59,489 nt of DNA from Saccostrea cucullata (lineage: Eukaryota), in the NCBI RefSeq assembly GCF_032062105.1, contig NW_026937605.1, positions 1-59,489 of the forward strand, in the 5' to 3' direction. The notes beneath the pieces were generated by a model. The model did not search any database. It saw only the letters and a program-made list of their open reading frames with translations, and had not been told where the DNA came from. A program made the position numbers and the translations under genes. This document shows, piece after piece, positions 24,701-55,800 of this stretch. Within the stretch, counting starts at the first letter, position 1; each line of letters begins with the position of its first letter.

Positions 24701-27700
24701 TCTATATGCTTTGCAGAAAAAGCACAAGTCACTGTCTTCAAAGGTTATCCGCTATCTTCAAAAATGCTTTAATTATTTACTAGCACAAAACCAGGGAAAC
24801 CCAAAAGGAATAGAAAAAGCGCTTGATGCCCTCTGTAACCACCCTTTCGGAAACCATGAGTCATGCAGCGATTCCTGGTGTCAGCATGTCAACAATCCGA
24901 AGCAAAGGTAGAATAATCATAAATATGACTAATTTGTCAGACATACTGTATGTGTACTAAAAAAAGCAGGCTTCATATTTAAGCGGGTATGGCGCAGACA
25001 ATGATGCGCTAATTCATGAATATATAAACTGCTAAGAAATCATTGAAATATACAAAAAACTGCACGGATATAAGTAGTGCGAATTCATGAATAATAACTC
25101 CATACCCAGTGACTGCACTATATACTTTGAATACATCAAATTAAGTACATGCACAATAACTAGGATGTAATTCACAATCAATTTGAACAAATTAATATAC
25201 TTATAAACATTTATCTTATTTTGTGCAAGCTTTATTTTTTACACTTCTTAATCCTGATTTAATTGATTCAATTTATGTTCAAAATAAATTAAAGGTACAC
25301 TTCCTTGCCTTATGGAAAGCCATTAAAAGACTCGGCCCTTCAAGATTCTCTACATTCGTTATGCAACCAATGGAAGCAGAACAGCTGTAAGATTTCCAGG
25401 CTGGGAAGCACCCAACCAAATGAGTCCTTCAATAGGACTGTGTCACTGAAAGCTCCGAAAAACCACTACTTTAGCGGCTCAGCTAGCTTAAACTACAGAG
25501 TAGCAGCATCTGTGGCAGAAAAAAACTCCGGAGCATCTTATCTTGTTGCTGTGAGTATATTATATATACCGGTTGTTTGTAAATTCATATTAAAAAAAAA
25601 AAAAAAAAAAATAATAATAATAATAATAATAATAATCATTAATTTTTTAAGTCATAATATAATAAATGTGTACAAGCAATTTTTGTAATTAACATTCTCT
25701 CTTATAAATGTTTAATGTTTTTTTTGTTGTAATAGGTAAACAAAAAGATCGGGTTATCTCCAGGAAGGTTTACGAGAAAGTTGTGCTACCTCAGGGAATC
25801 CCAGACCAGGAAGAGAAAGGCGATCGCCAAAACTAAGGAGGCCAAGAGAAGAAGGCGTGAGTTGAAGGCCAGGAGGTAATGTAAAATAACCTCACATGAA
25901 TGATTCTGGTAATCAGTTTGGTTTATTGCAATACATGACTTTCTATTAGACTAAGCATTTATTCTCAATTCTTAAAGATCCTTGAGTACAACTAGAAAAG
26001 AAATTCATGAAGGATCCACATATGAATCTGGAATAGGGTTAGGTCCTCAGCAAGATAACATCATTACAGAAATTCCAGTCCCATGCCCAAGGCCACAGAT
26101 GGAAACAGTTGATGTTGAAAATCATACACTTATCTTATTTGATTTAGAAACTACAGGATTAGGTAATGATCTAATAGTTTTTATCTGATATTTAGGCATG
26201 CCATACATGGTGAAATTTATTCTGTATAATTAAAAAGCAGTAAATATACTCCACTAAAGTACTATTATTGTCTGTTGGCCAGGAGAGAATATATTTACTT
26301 GTTCAAACATAAACTGGTGCGCTAAACAGTAATATTTTCTTTTAGCTCGCACTTCTCATATTGTTCAGTTGGCAGCGGTACAGAAAGAGGATAGATTTTC
26401 TTCATACGTTATCCCTAAGAGGCCCATAACGCCAACAGCTTCCGAAATAACAGGACTCACTGTTAGGAATGGGAAACTCTACCATAACAACAAAGAAGTG
26501 GGAGGCATTTCTCTGGTGGCTGCAATGGATTCTTTCTTGAAATTTCTTGAAAAGTACAACAACATCATTTTAGTAGGTCACAACGTTAAGGTTTTTGATT
26601 GTCCAGTGCTTTTTCGAGCTCTTGAATCATGTTCAATGTTACCAAGATTTTCAAGAAAAGTGAAGGGGTTTATTGATACAAAGCTTTTGTTTCGAATATC
26701 TCATCCAAACCTGAGCTCTTATAGCCAGCAAAATCTTGTAGAAAGTCTACTTGCATGTTCATATGAAGCACATAATGCCCTTGAAGATATTTTAGTGTTG
26801 CAGAAGTTGCTAGAATTAGTGAATTTATCAGATGAAAAGCATAAAGGTGCTACATTTTCACTTGATTATGCAATGAATGTACTGTCTTACCAAAAGGAAG
26901 TTGACAAAAATTTTCCTTCCTTACAAATTCTTGTTCAGAAAAAGGTGTTGAGTGTGTGTATGGCTAAAAGAATAGCTGGAAGTGGGTTAGATTTTGATAG
27001 TTTGAGACTAGCTTACTCTAGAGATCAGAATGGTATCCATGCATTGTTTACTGAAGTCTGTAGCAACAGTTCTGTGAGCATGGTGAGGGTGACAAAGTCA
27101 AACAAAATTATTGAGGCTGTGAACTCTTTTTTTCTGTCATTAAATGAAAGTTAAATATATTATAATGTGCATTGTATTATTTAAATGAAAGCAATTCAAT
27201 GGTATTAATTTATTTTCATCAGCTTTTTTTAAAATACAAATTTAGCAAGTTTATAATCTTCCAGGTTTTTTTTTTTATACCAAAAAAAAAAGATTCTTGA
27301 AGGCGTATATTTAATATATGTTTTGAAGAAAATTAAGATATATGTTATTGTGTGCAACAATGTTAAAAAGTACAGCTTGTTCTCATCAGTATGTATTTTT
27401 GATGTATTCTATTAAATAACAGATTACCAAATGCATATTCATCTTACAATTATATTTTATACATCATGTATTTTATACCGACATGTACATGTACAATTGT
27501 AGTTCGTGATTGAGACCTGCCTAACGTTGTATGATAACCTGGCAAAGAGGTAATAGATTGATTATGTAATTGTGCAAAGCGAATTATTTAAGTTTAATTA
27601 ATTTTCCTGCCTCAAATTAAGGTATAGACTGTTATAACGATTAAATATTTGTTGTAAGATATTTTACACTTTTAAAATCCATAATCTTGTAAGATGTGAT

Positions 27701-28689: not shown

Positions 28690-29470
28690 TTAAATTGAAA
28701 TAAAGCATTTTACATTTTGGTGTTCGTAGAGTATTGAAAATGCATATAGTTCCTACTGTGTATTCTAACGCGCGGTGACAAGGTTTCACGACTGTGTTAT
28801 AGAAATTTGAACGTCGTAGATTTCTAATGGATTTCATAAGGAAAATTACACTGAATGTAAATTTAATTTTATTTTGGAGACCTGTAACTATCTATGGTAA
28901 TTGTATCCATCCTTGTGCACCGTCTATCATCGGTCGTCCATTAACATTTAAACATTCTCAGCTTTTTCTCTGAAATCACTGAATCAATTTTAGCATATAG
29001 CATCCATGGGTTATAGGAGCAAAAATTGTGTACATGTATTTCATGGTCCCTGCCCCCTTGGGGCCTGAAGGGTGGGGCAAATCCTTGTTAAAATTAATGC
29101 AATCTTCAAAATCTTCTTTATTCCCGGACATCAAGCAGTCAAACTGTTGGCATGATTGTAATTGGCATTGAGTTCTCTATCAATATTGTAAAACTCATGG
29201 CCCCAAGGTCAAGGCAGAGCTGCCAACCCTTACGATTTTGGCGTAAGGCTTACGAATTGAGGGTCTAAAATACGCCTTACGATTTCTCTCTTTATTCTTC
29301 CGATTTCCACTTTTTCTCGATCAAAGTTTGAAATACCGGAATTTTCATAGCTGGCCGTCTACAGGTTCTACTATTATAATAATATATTCAGAATCTTTAC
29401 AACGCTTGCTTGTATCGTCGGTTATAGAAAAGCCGATCGCAGTCATGTCAATGCTTTAAAAGTAAACAAA

Positions 29471-29924
29471 AGGTTACAGGATACTAATTTTACCCCTATT
29501 TCATTGACCACGCAAAGAGTTCCAGATTAAAAATAGAGTTTTTTTCTTAAAAAATCTTGGGGGTGTATATGGGGTGGAATGGGGTTATTTTAGGGCATAG
29601 ATGGAAAGGAGAGGGTCTGAAAAAAATTATAAAATTAAGAATAATGGGAATTTTGCTATTAAGTGCGTAGTAGGAAGGGTGTAAAGAGGCCATTGTTGAC
29701 CTATTTCTCAAAGGGAAATGGAAATATGCAGGGTAGGGGTAAATTGCAGTGCCATAGCAAGGCTTGTAGACTACAGAATTTTCTGAGACTTGAGAATATT
29801 TTTGGCCTTGGATGGATCTAGCTCTGTGCCAAATTTCAGGTGAGTTGAGGCGGTGAATTTTTTTTAATGATTTTTTATGTTATAAAGGAATGTATAGCAA
29901 AATAATTGGTAGTCCGTGTCCTAT
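29471..29924. repeat. Left long terminal direct repeat (454 bp)
   Basis: AGGTTACAGGATACTAATT...AATTGGTAGTCCGTGTCCTAT. No difference from 33526-33979 seen by eye. Its own ends form an imperfect inverted repeat. Confidence 0.95.
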
Positions 29925-30115
29925 CAGGTCAAAGTTCAAAACTCACGTTAATCATCTTTACGGCCATTTTTGTATACTATGGGATTAGTATTGATTAAAT
30001 ATGACAAAATTCTAAACAAAATTCTGATTTTGAAAAATATTTGGGGAAAAGATATGAAAAAAAGGGGGGGGTGTTTCCTTTACATTAACTGTTTGACCTA
30101 CTTTATGCAAATGAG

Positions 30116-30601
30116 ATGCGGCGTGATATGATTGACGTGAGTTTTGGCCTCGGTCTAGTAGTTTTCCTACTTTCGTCTGCTAACTTTCACTTTATTTCTC
30201 GAAGATTAACCATGAATGCATTTTTTACTAAGTATGTTGCCAAGGTAAACTCGGGCTCTGCCCCTGGATTGAATGGTCAGTGTCGCATTTGGACGGGGGC
30301 TAGAAGCAGCAACAACAAGTATGGTGTTGTGTGCTACAAGCATCCGATAAAGAACAGGTGGCAGACGATGCATGTGCATAGACTCAGTGTCATGTTACAT
30401 CATCGTTACCATGAGTTGGATGCATCAGTTGTTGCATCTCACTTATGCCACAACACGCTGTGTGTTGTTCCAGAACATATTGTTCTGGAGCCGCAGGGCG
30501 TCAACAACCAGCGACAGACCTGCAAATCTGGGGGCACCTGTCTGGGGCACCCACTGCCATATCCACCCTGTCGCCTTGAGCTGCGTATGAATGACGATTA
30601 A
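30116..30601 (+). CDS. His-Me finger (His-Cys box, homing-endonuclease-like zinc-binding) nuclease
   Basis: CRIWTG..YG..HVHRLS..SHLCHNTLCVVPEHI..EPQGVNNQRQTC..C.GH..PPC. The real start may be the internal Met of MNAFF near 30212. Confidence 0.9.
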   Translation: MRRDMIDVSFGLGLVVFLLSSANFHFISRRLTMNAFFTKYVAKVNSGSAPGLNGQCRIWTGARSSNNKYGVVCYKHPIKNRWQTMHVHRLSVMLHHRYHELDASVVASHLCHNTLCVVPEHIVLEPQGVNNQRQTCKSGGTCLGHPLPYPPCRLELRMNDD

Positions 30602-30772
30602 CAATCTAGGTAAGTTTATCACATTTATTATTATGTTACACCGCTGAAGATGGGAGAGGCATGCATCACTCCTCACAAAGTTAGTTAGTAAGTATTTGTC
30701 AATGAAAAAGTTAAAAGGTAATTATTAATGTCATTTTCATGTAACTTATTATTTTACAAAGTTCATAGCGAG

Positions 30773-32819
30773 TCACTCTCTTCCATGACGTGGCCTTAGA
30801 TGGTATCGTAATCCTCCATTCTTGTGATATGGGTGATCACGGGCAGCAGGTGAGTTGAAGTCAAGTTGACCTTTACGGTAATCTGAAGTTCCTCTTTGTT
30901 CCTCGCGGTACTGGTGATGCTCTGCCATTTTCCTTGCCAGCTGTCTGTTTCTTCTACTCTTTACTCTCTCTTTTCTGTGATAGGCTTGATTGTAGAGGAA
31001 CTTCTGCTCTAGTCTGTGTAGTTGTCGCTTTCCCTGTTCCGAGTACTGTATTCCAGCAGATTCGCATTTCAGTCTCGTCGAAGTACCAGGTAAGTTGTTC
31101 CGTCTGTGTATCATGGAATGAAGACGACCCTCCATTGTTCGAGAGAACTTAATGTTCTTGGGCATGTTGCAACTGGCACTGCGGTGGTAAGATTCATTGG
31201 CATTTGTGTCAGTCAGCAGCTTCATGGCGTTGATGGCTTCTACACTCAGTTTCATTTTAAGGATTTCTGTCACAATTTTAATGTCATTTTCACTCATTTG
31301 CAGTGTGGTGATCTTATATTATAAACTGCCAAATTGCGGCTGAAGTTCCAACAGTTGGAAACGCACCCACCATCACACACAAGCGAGTACGCCACACACA
31401 TTGAACAGTCACCAGTGTAACAGAGGACAGTGGCCTCAAGGACTTTAGGTAAGAAATCACTCATTTTCTGCAAGTCGCTGTTAAATCTTGTAAACAGTTC
31501 TTTAACTTAATCAAAGCACATCTTGACTTTAGGTCATTGCTGAACACCCTCTGAAGCTCTTTCTTCTGTTCTTTAGTCTTTGTATGGAACATTGCATCAC
31601 TGTAAACTGCTCGGTTGCTGGCACGGAACTGTGACTGCCCAAGGTGGACGGGGTCAGCAAGACGCTCTACTTTCCATAGGGGATGTAGAGCTCGCATGGC
31701 TTCGTCCACTCCTTTGGCACCTTGGGCGTCGCCGTCTGTGGTAACATACCGGACTAATACATCTTGTAGTGCGAGCTGTGTGCCGATGTCCTTCCCCATC
31801 TCGTACTCGGAAAATGGTGCTGCCCGTGGTAGATTGGAGGTACACTCAGGATGGCCACCTGGACAATCCACTTCCATTCCCTTGCCCCTTAGCCATGCAC
31901 CTGTCCAGCAGAGCTTATTTTGCAGAGCACAGGCAAGTATGTATTTTCTATCAGTGTTGGTTTCAACGGCCAATGAGAAGGCTTGACTGGCATTCTGTCC
32001 GGGAGTCTTACGGCTGAACATGATGTTACTGTTGTAACGGGCATCTGTTGAGATGTTGATGACATCCTCTGGATGGCCTCGGGTCCTGTTGATCTGTTTT
32101 ACTTTCTGTATCTTCTGATGCATATCTTCTTTGTTTAGCTTTGTAATATTTTTACTTATTTTAAACAGGAGCTTCTGGAGAGAGGCCTTAGTGGGAGATG
32201 GGATGTCCATGCAGCTAAGGAATTCTATAACCTTCTCAGCTCCTAGTGAAGTGTCCTGAAGGGCATATGCCAGGGCCATGTTTGATGCTGATGCTTTGCG
32301 TCCAGGACCCCCTTGATGAATTTCTTGGAATAGGGCAAACTCGGGTGAGTTGAACTGGCAATTAACACAAGTCAGTGAGTATTTCCAGGAAATTCCTACT
32401 TTTTTTGAGTACTGCACAGTAATGTTCGGTGCGGTACAAGTGGTAGACTGGTGAAGTTGTATGGTTTGATTAATCATCTCCATCATCTTGTCTTCGTCCA
32501 CTATACGTCGACCGCCTAAGTATTCGCTACTCTTTGGTATTTGTTTTTTGCAGTTTGATGGACGTGGCCGCAGAATGCAGGTTGATCCGCTCTCACCGTC
32601 GCAGTCCGGAGTTTGGTATGAATGGCTGTCGAGACTTGGTTTGGTGACCAGGGCATGATCTGTTGAATTCAGCCTGACAAATGATCTTCGACCAGAATTT
32701 GGCTGTTTTTCCATCTTGAAGCCGTGGCTATTTCCTTGATGAAATCCTCCTTGCCTTGGGAGCTTCCTCTTGCAGAGTTGCTTCCCTTTGTTCCAGGGAA
32801 CCATATTTTTCTTAAACAT
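30773..32819 (-). CDS. Kolobok-family DDE transposase, intronless, two frameshifts
   Basis: GRRIVD, CVNC, ISTDARYNS (D), TTDGDA (D), DPVHLGQ and TNANESYH (E). ORFs 31461-32996 and 30773-31297 are bridged by a third frame (KELFTRFNSDLQK..CYTGDCSMC). The lesions are +2 near 31506 and a 5-bp duplication at 31314-31323. Confidence 0.85.
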
Positions 32820-33525
32820 GATGGTGAGTAGAATACTACTTATTCTTGCAGATTCAGGCAATAATGCCTTGGTTTTTCTTATTTCAACCATATTTATAGT
32901 GCTTAATGTTTGATTATTCTTAGTATGGCATCTTGTATATATCCATGACATTTTTAATGTGACCAGGGATAATCCAGCATGACCTGTAAGTGCCACTTCC
33001 TGATATTGGCTGCTGTGGTCATGTTTGCTTATCTGCTCACAACAAAGGGATTAATCTGTTTTTATTATCTTTTACTGTTGTTTTTTATAGCCAATATAAT
33101 GTAGAATTTTTTCATAATTTTTATTTTGTAAATTTCTATTGATTAATATTTTATATAGGGCAGTTTTTAAGAAATTTCACCATATTTGGGGGTATTTTTT
33201 CAAAAAAATCTTAAGAATTTTATCTGCATAATTGATCAAAGTTGTTATCAGAATTAAGTAGAGGGGATATTAAAATTATAGAAAAAAATAATTGGTAAGA
33301 AATTTATTGTAACATATGTGATATGTGAGTATTTCAAATTTGTGCATTGTGTGTCTGATGCTCATTTCATCCTCTGTTTTCAGGAGATCCAGTCATCACT
33401 GAAAAGGGCCATAACTCTGCTGTTCAGATGACAAATCCAATGAGACTTCAGAGGGGTGTGTAGTATGGCTTTAGAAGATTCTGTGCCAATTTTCATCAAA
33501 ATCAAAGAAGGTTAGTGTCTTTATT

Positions 33526-33979
33526 AGGTTACAGGATACTAATTTTACCCCTATTTCATTGACCACGCAAAGAGTTCCAGATTAAAAATAGAGTTTTTTT
33601 CTTAAAAAATCTTGGGGGTGTATATGGGGTGGAATGGGGTTATTTTAGGGCATAGATGGAAAGGAGAGGGTCTGAAAAAAATTATAAAATTAAGAATAAT
33701 GGGAATTTTGCTATTAAGTGCGTAGTAGGAAGGGTGTAAAGAGGCCATTGTTGACCTATTTCTCAAAGGGAAATGGAAATATGCAGGGTAGGGGTAAATT
33801 GCAGTGCCATAGCAAGGCTTGTAGACTACAGAATTTTCTGAGACTTGAGAATATTTTTGGCCTTGGATGGATCTAGCTCTGTGCCAAATTTCAGGTGAGT
33901 TGAGGCGGTGAATTTTTTTTAATGATTTTTTATGTTATAAAGGAATGTATAGCAAAATAATTGGTAGTCCGTGTCCTAT
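33526..33979. repeat. Right long terminal direct repeat (454 bp)
   Basis: Copy of 29471-29924. Confidence 0.95.
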
Positions 33980-33982
33980 CAA

Positions 33983-52848: not shown

Positions 52849-55800
52849 TTAGTTATTTACCAGAGGAACATCAAGATTTGTGAGCCAACATACAACTTGA
52901 AACATTTTGGTCAAAAGAGGCTTAAGAGTAAGTGGCATAACACCATCAAAGATATGAAAATTCTTTACTCTGCCTATGCTTCTCTCAACATGAATACGCA
53001 GAGAAGCGATATCTTGGGTTTCAAAAACTTCATCCGTAGAGAACTGTGGTGCACTTCCTCTAAAGGGTGGAATGTTTAACTTGCATTTCTTTTTCTCCAA
53101 CAAATCCCTAATGGTAAAACCTTTATCAGCCATAACACTATCATTTTCATCTAACAATTCAATTAAACCTGAAGATATTGTGAGTTCTCTATCAGATGTT
53201 TTTCCAGGCCAACCTTCAGATACAAATGTTATAACTCCAGATGGACTAATACCAATCAAAAATTTGGCAGTGGTATGGTGCTTGTAATTTGAAAAAGTTA
53301 AACTTTGGGTGTCAAGACGAGATGATTTTTGTATAAAAATTTCTGTACAATCTATGATAACTCGAACTGAAGGATATCTGATTTTAAATGAAGATGGCAT
53401 AGTTCTTTGAATAATATCTCGAGACGGGAAAGGGTTTAAACATTTCAATTCTTGCCACAGTAGACAGATCCATGTAGAAAAATATTTTGAAAAAGTACCC
53501 TCTGAAATTTGAAATCGTTCAGCAATATCGCTGGTCAAGAGTCCAACCTTCAGTCTAATAAGAACTGCAAACATCTGATCGATGTAATCCAATGCCCCTG
53601 CTGATGCTCTCTTGCGGTCAGAAGAAATATCTGTGCTTGTCCCTAGCCAATACTTCATTTTCTCTGCCTTTGGTTTTAGAAAGCTAAAAGCATGCAAAAA
53701 ATTTTGTCAGTACATGTACATGCAATTTCATAAAATTATGAAAAAAAAGTTAAAAAACTGATAATAAACCCCATCGTCTCAAGCCACGGTCCGGAGTCCG
53801 CATATATAGCTATCTCCTACCCGTGGCTGCTTGATCACAAAAAGAGTCATATTCTTGAATATTTAAATTTACGCCTCTCTATTGTGATGTCATATTCAGT
53901 CAGTGGCCAATACTGTTTCCATCGCAAATGAAATCAACAAATGATGTCAACAGTATACAAGACATATTTCCTATACTGCGATTGGATATTGAAAGGTCGC
54001 AATAAAGTTCATCATCCGACTATGCTTTACTCGCATTGGTCAATATTTTAATGAGCTACAAAGAATTCTTTCCTCGTTCAACCAAGGCCAGAATGGGAGA
54101 GGATATCGTACATTTTGGCCGTGGTTTGTGACGATGAATAAATCTTTGCAGAAGTAATAGTAAATTTTTATACATGTTATAAACATACCTGAATAGCCAC
54201 ATGAATACAGCAAATGTTGGAAGTCCAGTATAAAAGCGGGTCTTGGAATCATCATCTGTAATTTTCTGGAAACTCCATTTATGTTTCTTCACTTCTATTT
54301 GGAGGTCTTTCACCTGTTTCTTTAATGAGTCATTTTCTGCCATCAAAGGGTCAGTGTCACACTGCATACCTATGGTCAGTCATGAAAAACATGTTTAAAA
54401 GAAGTGTAAAAATGCCTTGTGAAATTATTGTTATATAAGGGCAAACATTAAAGCCATATATGGCGTAACTGATCAAAAAAATATATTTTTGAAAAATACA
54501 AAATTAAGTGAAGAAATTTAGTTAATACATTTAAATTAAAACTTTCGTACAATTCTGAACACGGAGAACACCTCGTTTCAACTAAAAATACGATTTTATC
54601 TTCTCTGTAATGTGTTATTTAAATATTTTGTATTTTCTTCCGAGTCGGAGAAAATTCCGAGAATCCAAATTAAATTGTGATATGTTTATAACGCAATTGA
54701 CATAGATTTTGTAATTTACGGAAAAGTTCTATCTTTATTTAAAGTAATGATACAAATATTAAGTTCTTATAATTTTAGTCTTATAATTTTCATTGTACAT
54801 ACGCCATATATGGCTTTAATGTAAATATATACTGTATACAGGGTTATTTTTCGCCCCGTGTTATTTTTGCCCTTTCACATTTGGAAAGAAGTTTGCCCGG
54901 GCATTTTAAAATTGCTCAGAAAGATTTTTTTAAGATATTATACTATTTTAATACTATAAACCTAATGTATATTAGTTTTGTGTATCTTTTTCCTTCTTTT
55001 GAATTTTTTTTCCAACTAATATAGAGGAATGTGTCAAATAAGAATAATAGATATCCTCAAAATAGAAAATTTATTTTATATTAAAACTTAGCTCTTTACC
55101 TTTCTCTTTGAAAGTCTTGATGTTAACATCATCTACAGGTAAATCTATGCAAGAGCTGTCTGTAAAAGGTGGGATATCTTCATTTGTTGTTCCTTGGTGA
55201 CAATAGCTGTGAGAAAACAAGCTAAACCTGAGATGCTGCTGTAGAGTCTGTGTTTCTCTTTCCTCTTGCTCATTTAACTCCTGTTTAAAGGAAAGATTTA
55301 TGAATTTGCAGTTGTTGGAAGAATAAAGACATATAATCATGGGAATATAAAAATATTTGATCAATGTGAATTACTATGTAAAATTTTTCCCCAGGAGGTA
55401 GTGGGGTAATAATGCTTGTGGTCTAGTCATACTTTTGGAGTTAGACAAGAGTTGTGGAGTGTGTATATTAGCAAGGTCCAGGGATTAAACTACAAGCTTT
55501 AACAAATTTTAACTATCAGTAATAGTAATTTAAAAAAAACATATTTGACAACATTAATTAGTGTTATTTCAAGTATATAACCTGTAAGAATTAGGTAAAT
55601 AGTATGGTGTCTGATAAATTTTAAATGTCTAAATATGTTTACTAGTATGTGGTACTACATAATTATATTGTGCAAGATGCACTCACACTTTGACCCTTTA
55701 TAATTGCAACAATATACTTAATTAAATGTACATGATTGTATAATTAAGTAAAAATAAAAGGAGAGATTTCAGAAAATAAAAAACACATTAGGTAAGGGAT

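Follow-up and report, generated by a model that had tools for sequence, protein, structure and literature searches.

The window analysed here is a stretch of 59,489 nucleotides from Saccostrea cucullata (contig NW_026937605.1). The element at positions 29472–33976 is a KolobokP monomer, a member of a known family. Two identical direct repeats, offset by 4055 bp, enclose nuclease and transposase open reading frames. Both repeat copies (29472–29921 and 33527–33976, minus strand) are 450 bp long, in line with the KolobokP repeat length of about 450 or 660 bp, and their GG..CC tips follow the RR..YY rule of the family, with imperfect inverted ends that agree at 13 of 20 positions in register. The ends were placed by homology: because nearly all published repeat consensus ends on display read GG..CC, with a few that start with GA or CG, the repeat is taken as 450 bp. 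The nuclease frame (30116–30601, plus strand, second ATG at 30212) is of the His-Me finger, His-Cys box type (PF05551, E 1.2e-11); it retains the I-PpoI active-site motif with the catalytic motif residues present. On the opposite strand, a DDE transposase (30773–32951, minus strand; PF20700, E 1.6e-62) is split into two open reading frame pieces, 31461–32951 and 30773–31318. Compared with other copies, this one carries small insertions near 31314 and 31508. In runs X1 and X6 (region 29350–34100) the repeats exceed the interior in summed contig depth by a factor of tens to hundreds; summed depth is not copy number, but the excess suggests many solo repeats or non-autonomous relatives.

A small element (34003–34645), its inverted arms 64 nt long, begins about 20 nt to the right of KolobokP, and an open reading frame of 680 aa with a hAT dimerisation domain (PF05699, E 3e-08) follows at 34934–36976. 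Tandem arrays with units of about 156 bp and of 164–173 bp are found at 37997–40940, 41951–43490, 15887–16395 and 28921–29216, and a fragment of the second tandem family lies directly left of the KolobokP element. Long near-perfect hairpins are present at 21306–21534 (arms of 78 nt), 11387–11526 (58 nt) and 44917–44989 (35 nt), and open frames of 269–321 aa at 12703–14411, 26333–27154 and 52849–53706.

Of interest are the junctions between repeats and interior. An earlier note, made from the letters alone, read each of them as an end motif, a single base and a start motif, and took the element to consist of three end-bounded modules. Both junction strings that it quoted are where it had placed them, but the parse differs. 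The spacers are of 4–6 nt: on the left, the repeat's CC is followed by TATC and then AGG (or by 5 nt before GG), so that inner spacer 1 is TATC or TATCA (29922–29926, plus strand), and on the right 6 nt precede GG (inner spacer 2, 33521–33526, plus strand). Identical words occupy both places in KolobokP-4_CGi, 4N1_CGi and 1_CHo, the nearest families in a comparison by eye of the published end sequences. Nor are the termini asymmetric, as had been proposed; they are symmetric GG..CC, the A that precedes the outer GG being part of the flank. AGG..CCT was rejected as the repeat termini, given the published GG..CC ends and the base before GG, which is mostly T in the families with A-N-N-T targets. 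A palindrome scan of the four junctions in the window did not separate inner from outer ones (best 4–5 of 7).

The supposed one-sided AT extension is the start of TATC at 33977–33980 (plus strand), four extra bases between the right repeat and a likely target copy. These four bases after the outer CC equal the first four of the interior, a coincidence expected in about 0.6% of cases by chance, and they are likely a carried spacer. The likely target duplication is AAA, at 29469–29471 and 33981–33983. It is read from one contig of run X6 that joins 29468 to 33981 and whose short side has only 23 letters; this one weak joint fits a 3-nt AAA duplication plus the four extra bases. A published solo repeat of 6_GiAe displays the same footprint as the element and its flanks at 29469–33983, namely target copy, repeat, TATC and target copy.

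The earlier note was right that the interior carries end-like motifs. After the 5-nt spacer the left pseudo-end (29926–29938, plus strand, which also holds a DR1-like motif) matches the repeat end motif in register at 6 of 8 positions, and after the 6-nt spacer the right one (33515–33520, minus strand) does so at 5 of 8; the background rates are 0.5% and 3.5%, jointly about 0.003. Base 33520 is C in high-depth contigs of runs X1, X5 and X6, so that the match to the repeat tip extends to a full 6 nt. Contigs that share the repeat diverge from the interior about 33 and 40 nt in, with loose ends at 29954 and 33487; from contigs alone, this suggests a relative that keeps just the outer 33 and 40 nt of the interior (29922–33526).

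The echo of the repeat within the interior, also pointed out earlier, is real. Positions 33405–33495 (minus strand), 31–122 nt from the interior's end, resemble repeat positions 29748–29838 with 60 of 96 columns identical, and a 15-nt motif at 33481–33495 recurs in both repeats. Its score of 42 came up once in 500 dinucleotide shuffles, never in 500 local shuffles and in 2 of 728 background windows. The likeness continues weakly to about 33195, some 330 nt, an extension that 5 of 500 shuffles equalled. At the opposite end of the interior no repeat echo was detected (274 of 500 shuffles reach the score). A spaced module recurs close to the start of many published interiors, AAAyTTGG with AArTTT about 45 nt on and then AGTTAT; as the echo is a form of this module, it may represent a shared subterminal module.

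Do the inner junctions recur in other families? Counts were made by eye on published consensus ends, among which related families are not independent, with a criterion fixed after the first set: an interior start counted if G stood at +5 or +6, an interior end if C stood at −5 or −6. The first set of families gave 13/25 starts and 22/24 ends. Of two held-out sets, the second gave 22/30 and 18/30, one ambiguous base being scored as a miss, and the third 15/28 and 20/28. The control was the first 60 full rows of published 1_MeMe insertion flanks, with G in 28/60 and C in 25/60. Against it, the pooled held-out sets stand at 38/58 for ends (p 0.008) and 37/58 for starts (p 0.046). Over all sets, the C motif is present in 60/82 interior ends vs 25/60 genomic flanks (p 0.00015, by eye); enrichment at the starts is weak (50/83 vs 28/60, p 0.075), the first and third sets not being significant. 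Genomic flanks display a milder C/G bias of the same sort, 42–47%, and the Amphioxus families mostly do not have the motif (starts 3/11). The first and last 4–5 nt of the published interiors are often one identical word.

In the clade of 4_CGi, taken from the tip order of the published tree and chosen after the data had been seen, 46/48 interior ends carry T at +1 and 36/48 carry G at +6, vs 7/78 and 23/78 of the published 6_GiAe target flanks. Targets of 6_GiAe are mostly A-N-N-T; the inner word is T-N-N-N-A followed by G, which none of the 78 flanks matches. As the bases at the interior ends differ from those of the target flanks, the inner word is not simply the target that 6_GiAe prefers. 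A long in-register end match (at least 9/12) was found in 4_CGi, 1_CHo, 3_CGi and 4_MyEd among about 49 published families, with 0.17 expected; two of the four are sister families, two are A-rich, and most families show none. 4_CGi, 4N1_CGi and 1_CHo no longer have the tip GG, and 4_CGi and 1_CHo retain the nine bases after it. A looser match of 7/12 was dropped as a criterion, as it is no commoner than chance (6.6 of 49 expected). The conservation over families on which the earlier note had staked its reading therefore holds in part: the minimal motif, a spacer and then G/C, recurs in the published consensus ends, but long end-likeness is confined to about 4/49 and GACAC is lost even in the closest families. 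Together, the evidence supports the inner junctions as conserved, roughly two-fold symmetric sites.

Published insertions offer a second line of evidence. In 25/39 rows that lack an exact duplication, the terminal 4-mer of the interior makes up one flank, where 9.7 are expected; the expectation derives from 18/174 clean rows, the test is post hoc, and three rows whose whole flank equals an interior end were excluded. By family, the terminal 4-mer is found in 4/4 rows of 5_GiAe, 10/11 of 4_GiAe, 2/3 of 3_GiAe, 4/11 of 6_GiAe and 5/10 within the first 60 rows of 1_MeMe. Many of these words substitute for a target copy with the length unchanged. This suggests that the intermediate brings a spacer with it and that repair then decides between the two words, as has been described for IS30 (PMC9333248), rather than a deletion from a cryptic end. 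Leftovers on the right side end after 4 nt, directly before AG, in all three cases (the element at 29472–33976 and two 6_GiAe rows). The inner spacer thus likely travels on the transposition intermediate, much as it does in copy-out circles, and the comparison of the inner junctions with copy-out junctions, drawn in the earlier note, agrees with these footprints. Two rows of 1_MeMe, one reading repeat-TATA-repeat and the other a repeat inserted 4 nt from the end of another repeat, fit circles that recombine back or insertion beside an end. A contig of run X1 (depth 114) joins the repeat end at 29919 back to the start at 29472 with 16 letters between, a stretch too long for a spacer, and the joint is not counted as a circle junction. 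It may represent two repeats inserted side by side.

If the interior were a mobile unit in its own right, insertions of interior alone, or of interior plus one repeat, should be found. Among the published orphan cases 3–6, the one solo interior is not an insertion from its own tips inside a clean duplication, and one of three interior-plus-repeat units is compatible with such an insertion. In cases 3, 5 and 6 the spacer of the interior is still present and target bases have been lost, so that they look like leftovers of repeat excision. Case 4, an interior-plus-repeat unit that starts at AG within a clean 4-nt duplication, fits either a mobile interior or the excision of a repeat together with its spacer. 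The interior is likely not moving alone.

How might such junctions work? Starting from the observed anatomy, its recurrence over families and the interior's terminal words at outer flanks, we infer the following, to which a probability of about one half can be given. The inner junction would consist of a repeat end, a 4–6 nt spacer and a degenerate end-like motif; the transposase would recognise it as a joined-end site and cut at the repeat tip, with the spacer taken along, and the interior would probably not be mobile by itself. Repeats or monomers would then leave inner-junction donors via a copy-out circle, in which, as the footprints suggest, the spacer is the terminal word of the interior. 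Host repair would sometimes retain this word in place of one target copy or in addition to it, and the four bases at 33977–33980 would arise in this manner. Less firmly, the pseudo-ends may descend from the ends of an ancestral autonomous Kolobok, an origin that would also account for the echo of the repeat. The most conjectural step is the persistence of the pseudo-ends as docking sites for IS30-like insertion beside an end, by which composite and multimer forms could be rebuilt. A wider proposal, that KolobokP is a eukaryotic copy-out transposon that actively keeps its composite form, with attenuated interior ends serving as docking (or nuclease) sites and spacers recording the source junction, is put forward only tentatively.

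Other origins of these motifs have to be weighed. The three-module reading of the earlier note would have interior-only or repeat-plus-interior units move from true cryptic ends, and the four extra bases would mark where an interior-plus-repeat unit was deleted from a former dimer. Case 4 and the right-side leftovers that stop before AG in 3/3 cases speak in its favour. The reading is weak, though, because three of the four published orphans resemble repeat-excision leftovers, with their own spacer kept and the target bases gone, and case 4 can also be a repeat and spacer excision. Interior words replace target copies at constant length, which deletion cannot do, and the tip GG is absent in 4_CGi, 4N1_CGi and 1_CHo. 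Three equal mobile modules are accordingly improbable. Frozen target-site relics are a better candidate, if still rather unlikely: repeats would have inserted, and would re-insert, into an ideal target, the interior ends being mere target halves. The shared first and last word of many published interiors and the C/G bias of genomic flanks speak for such relics. They conflict with the difference between the A-N-N-T targets of 6_GiAe and the inner word, seen in 0/78 flanks, and leave the echo and the in-register end match of the 4_CGi clade unexplained.

Could the inner junctions be recognition sites of the His-Me nuclease instead, the interior and the repeat tip forming a semi-palindrome in which a cut at the spacer induces unequal crossover? 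His-Cys nucleases act as homodimers that leave 4- or 5-nt 3' overhangs (PMC9548176), the lengths of most spacers; the active-site motif of I-PpoI is intact in the frame at 30116–30601, and one junction in 3_MyEd and 7_MeMe has 11 consecutive bases in common with the I-PpoI site (PMC2602781). Just four of these 11 bases, however, are not already dictated by the TTAA and GG rules of Kolobok, the far half-site in the same published junctions mismatches positions where I-PpoI is strict, and the junctions of the Saccostrea cucullata element do not match the 15-bp site at its strict positions. Cutting every copy of itself would also be at odds with the usual logic of homing, and on balance this function is rather unlikely. 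Most improbable of all is that the left-junction motif (29926–29938), which we take to resemble the DR1 consensus of nuclear receptors, is retained because a host transcription factor binds there, upstream of the nuclease gene. It is the sole exact match to the pattern within the window, it lies 190–290 nt upstream of the nuclease ATGs, and 4N1_CGi, in its published form, has a perfect version; but a DR1 site would explain one junction alone, and its second half-site is altered in the autonomous 4_CGi and 1_CHo. The joined-end reading of the inner junctions remains the preferred one.

Much of the framework is already in print. The KolobokP elements described by Kojima and Bao (2022; PMC9587614) have the same 450-bp GG..CC direct repeats and a transposase and a nuclease on opposite strands; those nearest by their ends, 4_CGi, 4N1_CGi and 1_CHo, also have the same inner spacer words. 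The authors propose circles with a spacer like those of IS3 and IS256, excision of solo repeats and nuclease cutting at abutted ends; their abutted-end circle and the His-Me cutting concern repeat-repeat junctions, and the upkeep of the composite form, the involvement of circles and the target of the nuclease were left open (PMC9587614). As late as 2026, a review describes the model as unconfirmed (PMC13565253). On interior tips, the main text of PMC9587614 has just one family whose interior starts and ends with TATA; pseudo-ends on the interior, an echo of the repeat and interior words next to the outer ends do not figure in it. Nor were pseudo-ends, an echo or a carried-spacer footprint encountered in the text of the openly accessible papers on KolobokP and on the terminal direct repeats of Kolobok. 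One metagenome scan returned two loci, both chance 20-nt matches with no surrounding repeat. The interior pseudo-ends, the echo and the carried-spacer footprint are therefore a modest, testable addition to an element family and a circle idea that have been published. The inner-junction motif defines 30-bp substrates for both enzymes, and the carried-spacer footprint gives, for animals, a sign of a copy-out-like intermediate that is readable from sequence and can be tallied in every genome assembly.

Two known systems invite comparison. The homing nucleases of the I-PpoI/His-Cys box type share the active-site motif of the KolobokP nuclease and have semi-palindromic sites with 4–5 nt overhangs; I-PpoI and its kin cut the intron-less rDNA site, whereas the junctions of the Saccostrea cucullata element do not match the I-PpoI site. 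In the 660-bp clade and the 3_BF group, published repeat ends often begin with GGTAGC and, taken together with TTAA, look like the right half of the rDNA site of I-PpoI, a likeness that may be chance. IS30 and IS911, which transpose by copy-out-paste-in, offer joined ends, a spacer of target length, correction of mismatched bases at integration and targeting beside an end that rebuilds junctions (PMC9333248). They are bacterial elements in which each junction joins two full ends and the transposase gene is flanked by the ends that belong to it, whereas in the element described here one partner of the inner junction is a degenerate end. By inserting beside its own ends, IS30 creates new joined-end junctions (PMC9333248).
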